From Escherichia phage JP4: DNA of 64,000 nucleotides. Numbering within the stretch: the first letter of the stretch is position 1; the number at the start of each line of letters is the position of its first letter. The notes beneath the pieces were generated by a model that saw nothing but the letters and a program-made list of their open reading frames with translations, was not told where the DNA came from and searched no databases. Location of the stretch: sequence record PQ330092; one strand, given 5' to 3'. Below, one piece after another: positions 39,898 to 39,930 of this stretch. Both the position numbers and the translations under genes were made by a program.

Positions 39898-39930
39898 GGG
39901 ATTGACTCCGGTCAGTCCCTTTGCTATTAT
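39898..39930 (+). promoter_or_regulatory. terminator/promoter hybrid hairpin
   Basis: GGGATTGAC-TCCG-GTCAGTCCC then T3. The -35 TTGACT (39902-07) lies in the stem; 17-bp spacer; TATTAT 39925-30. Confidence 0.65.

Follow-up and report, generated by a model that had tools for sequence, protein, structure and literature searches.

In coliphages RB49 and phi1, the elements called PeSLs combine a strong sigma70-like promoter, an AT-rich upstream tract and a stem-loop between the stop codon of one gene and the start of the next (Arbiol 2010, PMC2839356). Five subclasses were distinguished, stem-loops overlapping the -35 hexamer among them; phi1 PeSLs showed both terminator-like and promoter activity in lacZ fusions, their promoters were too strong to be cloned unmutated, and PeSLs were argued to insulate and shuffle open reading frame (ORF) cassettes (PMC2839356). 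In phages nt-1 and KVP40, the stem-loop has the form A3-4G3-loop-C3T3-4 and the promoter the form TTGYVH-N17-TAWWAT (Comeau, Arbiol and Krisch 2014, PMC4122927). Here we describe elements of this kind in Escherichia phage JP4 (record PQ330092), in a stretch of 64,000 nucleotides (the window), with emphasis on the copy at 39895-39930. We conclude that this hybrid element is a PeSL-type composite promoter-terminator cassette, belonging to a class described in 2010 and 2014, and not a new device. New are its occurrence and placement in an Asteriusvirus, notably within a terminal repeat and with a conserved leader, and the fixed register of its -35 with a UNCG loop.

The pattern TTGACTYCGGTCA matches the window nine times, always on the + strand (at 1111, 2525, 35882, 39902, 43171, 45429, 55996, 60016 and 63285, by which the copies are named below), compared with 0.11 matches expected from shuffled sequences. 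The matches at 55996, 60016 and 63285 are repeat copies of those at 35882, 39902 and 43171, leaving six unique copies. Thus, the six copies per single-copy sequence reported in a preliminary description of this DNA were confirmed as nine matches minus three from a duplicated repeat. The positions given there are those of the hairpin starts, and its range 39898-39930 is exact, with the first G of the stem at one end and the last T of the -10 at the other.

All copies share one layout: an A-rich tract, a GC core of 20-22 nt, three to six T, TGC, and TATAAT or TATTAT. Runs of 20-30 nt rich in A lie upstream of each copy, and the core takes the form GGG-TTGAC-UUCG-GTCAG-CCC or GGGA-TTGAC-UCCG-GTCAG-TCCC, with a UUCG loop in three copies and a UCCG loop in the other three. 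In order from 1111 to 45429, the -35 and -10 are separated by 18, 18, 17, 17, 17 and 17 bp, in agreement with the 17-18 bp claimed previously, and the T-runs measure 6, 5, 4, 3, 3 and 3. The tract after the stem reads UUUUUUGC at 1111, UUUUUGCU at 2525, UUUUGCUA at 35882 and UUUGCUAU at the other three copies. The U-rich tract of an intrinsic terminator usually measures 7-9 nt. Two -10 hexamers are TATAAT and four are TATTAT, and the TGC before each makes an extended -10. The RNA hairpins have folding energies between -13.9 and -19.5 kcal/mol and z-scores between -4.2 and -6.9; none of 200 shuffles folded as well. They are GC-rich, and their stems and loops fall within the 5-14 bp and 3-8 nt expected of an intrinsic terminator. 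Changes from copy to copy preserve pairing (GGGA with TCCC, TGG with CCA, G-U for G-C).

In every case, an upstream + strand ORF ends at a stop codon 7-16 nt before the element. The neighbouring genes encode hypothetical proteins of 30-130 aa, and the six unique copies lie in 47 kb. These copies are not independent of each other: the four in the terminal repeat form part of a longer repeat, about 140 nt in length, and those at 1111 and 2525 are alike. A looser seventh relative at 29915-29949, overlooked in the preliminary description, keeps the TTGAC/GTCAG inner stem under a different outer stem (CCAGTA/TACTGG), has a -10 (CATAAT) that abuts the stem, and also heads a leader with the 12-mer described below (29975-29986). 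A search of the whole window against Rfam at the gathering threshold returned no family.

Selection on the hairpin was evaluated in IMG/VR, which was scanned for TTGACT-NN-GGTCA followed by TATNAT at 9-13 nt, with the outer stem left unconstrained. Many of the 107 distinct matches are chance or coding sequences. Nevertheless, at least four further outer pairs were present in 20 of the 32 matches with a UNCG loop compared to 12 of the 75 with other loops (Fisher p = 4e-6). Covariation was then counted in 32 distinct IMG/VR UNCG sequences chosen by TTGACT-NCG-GTCA plus a -10 and without regard to outer pairing. The four outer pairs contained 34 compensatory double changes, compared to 11.6 +/- 2.7 in shuffles (none of 500 reached 34), and 89.9% of their cells were paired compared to at most 54.5% when the 3' partner was slid. 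The outer stems include GGG/CCC, GGGA/TCCC, GGA/TCC, TGG/CCA, GCC/GGC, CCCC/GGGG, GTAC/GTAC and GGCCAC/GTGGCC. This freedom of sequence with pairing kept implies that a structure is conserved, and not a word bound by a protein. The loops in this set are UUCG, UCCG, UACG or UGCG, closed by C-G. Because the C-G-closed UNCG motif is specially stable in RNA, these loops point to action at the level of the transcript and not of the DNA. The four repeat copies are kept in place in phages G17, 121Q, ELP-22 and vB_Ec-M-J, where loop changes are confined to UNCG (UUCG to UCCG).

Coupling of the hairpin to a promoter was assessed by a search of viral metagenomes for the hairpin only (GGGTTGACTNCGGTCAGCCC), with no condition on downstream sequence, which gave 56 distinct contexts. 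A -10-like hexamer (at least four of six matches, including A2 and T6) follows the hairpin in 52 of these, always at a spacer of 17 (22 contexts) or 18 (30 contexts), and the match is at least five of six in 41; the baselines at random positions of the same loci are 11.6% and 2.8%. TG occupies the extended -10 position in 43 of the 52. Moreover, the -35 of the hybrids is always TTGACT, whereas promoters of the repeat that lack the GC hairpin have TTGACA. Because TTGACT ends on the base that opens the UNCG loop, this difference is a sign of double constraint. At 1111 and 2525, a stop codon lies 9-12 nt before the element, and a Shine-Dalgarno sequence and ATG follow 26-28 nt past the -10 (for the element at 1105-1140, AAGAGG and then ATG at 1167). 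The ORFs starting at 1167 and 2583 have no other promoter available to them.

From the anatomy of the element, the selection on its pairing, the coupling of hairpin to -10 and the placement after stop codons, we infer termination, initiation and their efficiencies, and we consider it likely that the element has a dual function, as an intrinsic terminator in RNA and as a sigma70-type promoter in DNA. An incoming transcript would present an 8-9-bp GC-rich hairpin with a C(UNCG)G tetraloop and then U3-6, which constitutes an intrinsic termination signal. Termination normally occurs 7-9 nt past a stem. Release at that distance would fall inside the -10 hexamer, with the new start about 10 nt further along. 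When the element is read as duplex DNA, its 5' arm and first loop base would serve as the -35 TTGACT, and the 3' arm and T-run would fill the 17-18-bp spacer up to TGn-TAT(A/T)AT, with an A-rich, UP-like tract upstream. Given a -35, spacer, extended -10 and UP-like tract, a sigma70-type holoenzyme, with the sigma factor of the host or an RpoD-like factor of the phage, would start RNA about 7 nt past the -10. Overall, early transcription that has built up over a gene block would be stopped where the block ends, and RNA with a defined new 5' end would begin about 10 nt further on, with the promoter shielded from occlusion by upstream transcription. Judged by their U-tracts, termination should be efficient at 1111 (U6) and 2525 (U5) and may be partial at the repeat copies with UUUGCUAU.

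The core of the preliminary description, an insulator that joins terminator and promoter, is therefore supported by covariation, by the hairpin/-10 coupling, by the stop-codon placement and by the reporter assays of phi1 PeSLs (PMC2839356), although the device is not a new one. The suggestion in that description that hairpin extrusion could couple the two activities found no support, as UNCG loops are an RNA-level feature. On the same grounds, and with no evidence in its favour, a cruciform switch was rejected.

Several observations weigh against the proposed functions of the element. The U-tract of the repeat copies is only UUU before GCUAUUAU (with a T-run of 4 at 35882), a marine subfamily reads CCC-UUCUGG, and the T-run is two or less in 12 of the 56 hairpin contexts, implying that a strong U-tract is not universally kept; the hairpin may attenuate instead of terminate, or may have another role. 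A simple terminator scan listed the four repeat copies and omitted 1111 and 2525, probably because extension of the stem through A/T pairs consumes the T-run. The flanks of the four repeat hybrids are collinear in G17, 121Q, ELP-22 and vB_Ec-M-J, with no homology break at any of them. Context counts are inflated over independent events, because many phage copies are related by descent or transfer. Finally, a literature search for transcriptomes (3' or 5' ends) of Asteriusvirus or Rak2-like phages found none, and only the distant phage PA5oct has RNA-seq data.

These short U-tracts, both in the repeat copies and in the 12 contexts elsewhere, would also fit an element that is a promoter only, in which the inverted repeat serves binding of a dimeric regulator, a DNA-level structure or a recombination linker and upstream transcripts mostly read through. 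In addition, most other early promoters of the repeat have inverted repeats around the -35 without a T-run (AGTACT pairs; 33913, 36753, 37015, 41178 and 29921), which implies that placing a -35 in a palindrome is a general habit there and is not always terminator-like. However, complete change of the outer stem sequence with pairing kept argues against sequence-specific protein binding, UNCG loops with a C-G closing pair are a feature of RNA stability, at least three T follow the stem in 44 of the 56 contexts although a promoter does not need them, and the elements stand directly after stop codons. We therefore regard a promoter without termination as unlikely. The converse, an element that only terminates, whose TTGAC and AT-rich tail look like a promoter without being one and whose downstream genes are reached by read-through or from other promoters, is very unlikely. 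It agrees with the terminator-only annotations of phages CBB and G17, with one CBB copy that has a poor -10 (CCCTTTATTTTAATT), and with the further promoters between the repeat elements and the next ORF. By contrast, it accounts neither for a -10 at a spacer of 17 or 18 in 52 of 56 contexts (11.6% by chance), 43 with the extended -10 TG, nor for the ORFs at 1167 and 2583, which start 26-28 nt past a -10 and lack another promoter; the conserved area around the inferred start (CAT...) and the strength of the phi1 PeSL promoters (PMC2839356) also speak against it.

A mainly post-transcriptional hairpin, which would stabilise the 3' end of the upstream mRNA or halt its processing there and would not release polymerase, would be in keeping with stable UNCG-capped hairpins right after stop codons, and terminator hairpins are known to stabilise upstream mRNA (PMC11696848). 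We consider this highly improbable as the main function: it leaves the T-run and A-tract unexplained, it is compatible with termination and so not exclusive of it, and stems of 8-12 bp are too short for RNase III. A role as an RNase III site was rejected for this last reason.

The stop-and-restart reading could be extended, for Rak2-like jumbo phages, to an early switch that resets and reprograms transcription, in which polymerase is recycled at the overlapping promoter and a nut-like leader reprograms the restarted enzyme; we think this quite unlikely. Because release would occur inside the element's own -10, a just-terminated polymerase would already be on a strong promoter and could begin a new round while still bound to DNA. 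E. coli RNA polymerase has been shown to slide and reinitiate after termination (PMC6978380, PMC10372574). In such a scheme, whether the restarted polymerase reads past the next hybrid terminators could depend on the structured, nut/put-like leader.

Compared with described PeSLs, the closest counterparts are those of nt-1 and KVP40. Their stem-loop and promoter consensus match the elements of the window, a KVP40 copy at 21,140 (AAAAGGGTTGACTGCGGTCAGCCCTTTCGCGTATTAT) is near-identical, and they likewise occur in several copies per genome among small unknown ORFs, near indels and homing-endonuclease genes (in the window, at 1111 and 2525 only). They differ in that the phage of the window is an Asteriusvirus, outside the Straboviridae, with four of its six copies in a 20-kb terminal repeat; in that these repeat copies lead to a structured leader and a second promoter instead of a Shine-Dalgarno sequence and ATG; and in that the repeat copies lie away from homology breakpoints. 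The class was defined in T4-like myoviruses, to which the phage of the window does not belong, but that part of the definition reflects where PeSLs were first described and not their mechanism. The RB49/phi1 PeSLs share the near-consensus sigma70 promoter, AT-rich tract and stem-loop after a stop codon, and, with the copies at 1111 and 2525, the closeness of the next gene and the flanking exchangeable ORFs. Their stem-loops are of the form Gn-loop-Cn and are commonest between -35 and -10 or over the -10, whereas in the window the -35 is always the loop-proximal 5' arm, its last base being the U of the UNCG tetraloop.

Each half of the element also resembles a standard signal. Like E. coli intrinsic terminators, it has a GC-rich 8-9-bp stem, a tetraloop and a U-run, ARNOLD accepts hairpins of this type, and the upstream A-tract gives it a bidirectional look. 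In contrast to them, its U-tract has only 3-6 U, with a distal part GCUAU(A/U)AU, because the -10 must begin 17-18 bp past the -35. Like extended -10 sigma70 promoters with an UP element, it has TTGACT, a 17-18-bp spacer, TGn, TATAAT or TATTAT and A-rich sequence from -40 to -60, but its spacer is constrained to be the complement of the -35 and the bases upstream. Lambdoid 'morons' are also self-contained expression cassettes that can be added without disturbing neighbours (discussed in PMC2839356); they use a separate, unconserved promoter and terminator, whereas here one conserved, repeated 35-bp sequence would do both.

A 50-nt query with the element matched 174 phage records, at 680 places in total. 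All Asteriusvirus genomes are among them, each with 6-9 places, as are Klebsiella Rak2-like phages, Erwinia and Yersinia Eneladusvirus, CBB, and Pectobacterium, KVP40-like Vibrio and Aeromonas T4-like phages. The same query had no match in 5,426 complete E. coli genomes, which speaks against an origin in the host. For Rak2-like phages, the publications and records consulted do not record its double nature and list it as terminator or promoter only. The CBB paper gives GGGTTGACTTCGGTCAGCCC three times among terminators (Torf515, Torf518 and Torf520, -16.8 kcal/mol) and not among its RpoD-like promoters, the G17 record annotates the hairpins as ARNOLD terminators, and the fHe-Yen9-03 record annotates the same element as -35/-10 signals. 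Nolan 2006, on promoters and terminators of T4-like phages, added nothing on their overlap. In fHe-Yen9-03, a hybrid element has a gene for a phage RpoD-like sigma factor (locus L004, 4-996) two genes upstream, and such a factor is also encoded by CBB; besides the host's sigma, one from the phage may therefore recognise the sigma70-type promoters of these phages.

A 2-kb query around the element is 88-97% identical to Asteriusvirus G17, Sharanji, 121Q, phAPEC6, ELP-22 and vB_Ec-M-J, which are jumbo coliphages of about 350-380 kb in the Rak2-like group (G17/121Q-like). Within the window, 26792-43886 recurs exactly at an offset of 20,114. The start of the repeat unit 26792-46905 is base 1 of the ELP-22 and vB_Ec-M-J records, and its end is that of the annotated direct terminal repeat of vB_Ec-M-J (1-21525). 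The window thus runs from the end of the unique region through the terminal repeat and then the terminal repeat again. This tandem arrangement is most likely an artefact of joining the two ends of a linear record, with no biological duplication, so that six per single-copy sequence is the correct count. The unit contains four of the six hybrids. On the + strand of its right half, terminator-like hairpins stand at 35882, 37238, 39902, 41669, 43171 and 45429, four of the six being hybrids, and nearly every small ORF between them has its own consensus promoter. This arrangement makes the hybrids look like block boundaries, which would cut and restart transcription summed over several promoters.

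The region past the repeat copies is itself conserved. The area around the inferred start (CAT...) is followed by the invariant 12-mer CCCACAGGGTGC at 39952-39963, and in all four repeat copies an invariant 12-mer (CCCAYAGGGTGC) lies 16-21 nt past the inferred start. All four also have a second promoter (TTGCAx-16-TATAAT, flanked by AGTACT) about 85-120 bp downstream and small annotated ORFs 170-300 bp downstream, past the leader and further promoters. The view that transcripts from the repeat copies are orphans is not upheld by this arrangement. The leader occurs ten times per terminal repeat, on both strands, each copy 15-34 nt past a strong promoter. Its order is a first hairpin, CUAA or CUAG, and the invariant CCCAYAGGGUGC; six bases further, a variable RYRUCY pairs with the GGGUGC of this motif. 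In leaders picked by eye, the stem of the first hairpin covaries, measures 3-5 bp and takes 14 different sequences, and its hexaloop is G(A/C)GAAA or AGAUAR; the copies at 39952 and 45479 are without it. Cells of the GGGUGC pairing are paired in 87.8% of cases compared to 31-65% when slid, with one-sided changes only. RNAalifold on a MAFFT alignment of leaders gave only the CCC/GGG pairs, the variable first hairpin being out of register, and folding of each sequence was used instead. The leader had no match in Rfam. It resembles a nut/boxB-type site or an attenuator.

A partial leader (CTAGGGTGCGGGAGTGTATCC) followed by T7 is present at 28018-28070 (+), downstream of a weak promoter-like site at 27982-28011, and looks like a terminated RNA of about 45 nt; the leader at 28096-28107 lies antisense to it. 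At 32378-32399, 33104-33125 and 37238-37262, ordinary terminators within the repeat open with (C)TAGCCCAC, the opening words of the leader 12-mer (CTAGCCCACAGGGTGC), which suggests a shared origin or shared recognition.

At the two copies outside the repeat, the element may have a secondary role as a conserved linker that marks the cassette boundaries of gene exchange, by association at 1111 and 2525 only. Homology to other phages starts or stops around these two, at 1095-1109 and 2505-2515. Between them lie a 78-aa ORF and a 372-aa ORF (1396-2514) that PHROGs relates to HNH/homing endonucleases, and other phages hold different endonuclease genes at this place. The element at 2518-2554 thus stands after the homing-endonuclease-like ORF and before an AAA-ATPase-like ORF starting at 2583. 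ORFs 1396-2514 and 485-1096 had no match in Pfam; the latter, which ELP-22 lacks, is inserted beside a decayed element at 442-477. Decayed or truncated copies include this one (CAAGGATTCACTTCCCC...) and one in ELP-22 (locus L002, 1249-1275; GGATTGACTTCGGTCA) without T-run or -10; such copies fit the 'half PeSLs' of Comeau 2014. In the repeat, local blastn against four genomes placed homology breaks at other promoters and ORF ends (39160, 40199, 40731, 43594 and 45556). The possibility that every copy is a recombination point was rejected, as these breaks miss all four repeat hybrids.

Other features of the window were recorded alongside the elements listed in Table 1. Promoter density in 26792-46905 is extreme (109 sigma70-like sites compared to 68 +/- 8.5 in shuffles), and 11 of these, on the + strand, are perfect TTGACA-16/17-TATAAT sites, so that each small ORF has about one. 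In the terminal repeat, the palindrome AGTACT (for example, at 39993, 40017 and 40153) is over-represented 20-fold (133 compared to 6.5 expected), and in 1-26791 it is over-represented 12-fold (105 compared to 9.0); no other 6-mer palindrome is enriched more than 3.2-fold. It lies in the spacers of most promoters of the repeat, occupying -21 to -15 of most early promoters (AGTACTGTATAAT), and also occurs just 5' of the -35. Inverted pairs of AGTACT place the -35 in a hairpin loop at 33913, 36753, 37015 and 41178, and AGTACT is also found in terminator stems outside the repeat. On the - strand, 7382-21652 is a tandem array of about 12 ORFs of 245-460 aa, with 100-150-nt repeats at a spacing of about 1.2 kb and CCAGTAC-containing terminator-like hairpins between the ORFs, and probably represents a paralogous gene family.

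Table 1. Coordinates of the hybrid elements, leaders and associated features in the 64,000-nucleotide window of phage JP4
Feature	Position	Strand	Details
Focal hybrid element	39895-39930	+	A/T-extended stem 39895-39922; upstream ORF stop 39883; ARNOLD terminator in G17 record
Focal element, GC core	39898-39919	+	GGGAUUGAC-UCCG-GUCAGUCCC
Focal element, -35	39902-39907	+	TTGACT
Focal element, TG	39922-39923	+	
Focal element, -10	39925-39930	+	TATTAT
Hybrid element	1105-1140	+	Core 1108-1127; -35 1111-1116; -10 TATAAT 1135-1140; U6; upstream stop 1096
Hybrid element	2518-2554	+	Core 2522-2541; -35 2525-2530; -10 TATAAT 2549-2554; U5
Hybrid element, terminal repeat	35875-35910	+	Core 35878-35899; TGG/CCA for GGG/CCC; UUCG loop; -10 TATTAT 35905-35910
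Hybrid element, terminal repeat	43164-43199	+	Core 43167-43188, identical to that of 39895-39930
Hybrid element, terminal repeat	45422-45457	+	Core 45425-45446, identical to that of 39895-39930
Second-repeat copy of 35875-35910	55989-56024	+	
Second-repeat copy of 39895-39930	60009-60044	+	
Second-repeat copy of 43164-43199	63278-63313	+	
Looser seventh relative	29915-29949	+	CCAGTA-TTGAC-TTATTTT-GTCAG-TACTGG then CATAAT; 7-nt loop; no T-run
Decayed hybrid element	442-477	+	CAAGGATTCACTTCCCCTCCCATATTTTATATAAGG; intact element here in ELP-22
Inferred transcription start and conserved leader start	39937-39963	+	A of CAT, 7 nt past -10; inferred from spacing
Leader 12-mers after other repeat hybrids	35937-35948, 43226-43237, 45479-45490	+	
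Second promoter	40022-40049	+	TTGCAT-16-TATAAT; AGTACT...AGTACT before it
Further promoter	40138-40166	+	
First ORF start	40199	+	
Leader 12-mer copies	27881-27892, 28096-28107, 30032-30043, 31564-31575	-	
Leader 12-mer copies	29975-29986, 35937-35948, 37595-37606, 39952-39963, 43226-43237, 45479-45490	+	
Leader at further loci			L024, L044, L123, L134, L141, L144
One unit of direct terminal repeat	26792-46905	.	Early-gene region; 20,114 bp; second copy from 46906

These findings leave the current understanding of transcription unchanged, and the element would be a natural, compact stop-and-restart part for engineering in E. coli. The findings also bear on the annotation and evolution of these phages. 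In Rak2-like genomes, these 35-bp signals have been annotated as terminators (G17, CBB) or promoters (fHe-Yen9-03), never both, and such single-function annotation implies that, in the early and terminal-repeat regions, transcription units have been wrongly predicted at each such site. Moreover, the spread of the element over at least 174 records of Escherichia, Klebsiella, Erwinia, Yersinia, Pectobacterium, Vibrio and Aeromonas phages extends the PeSL idea past the T4-like phages, and is consistent with either repeated transfer or strong convergence on a solution in which nearly every base is constrained.

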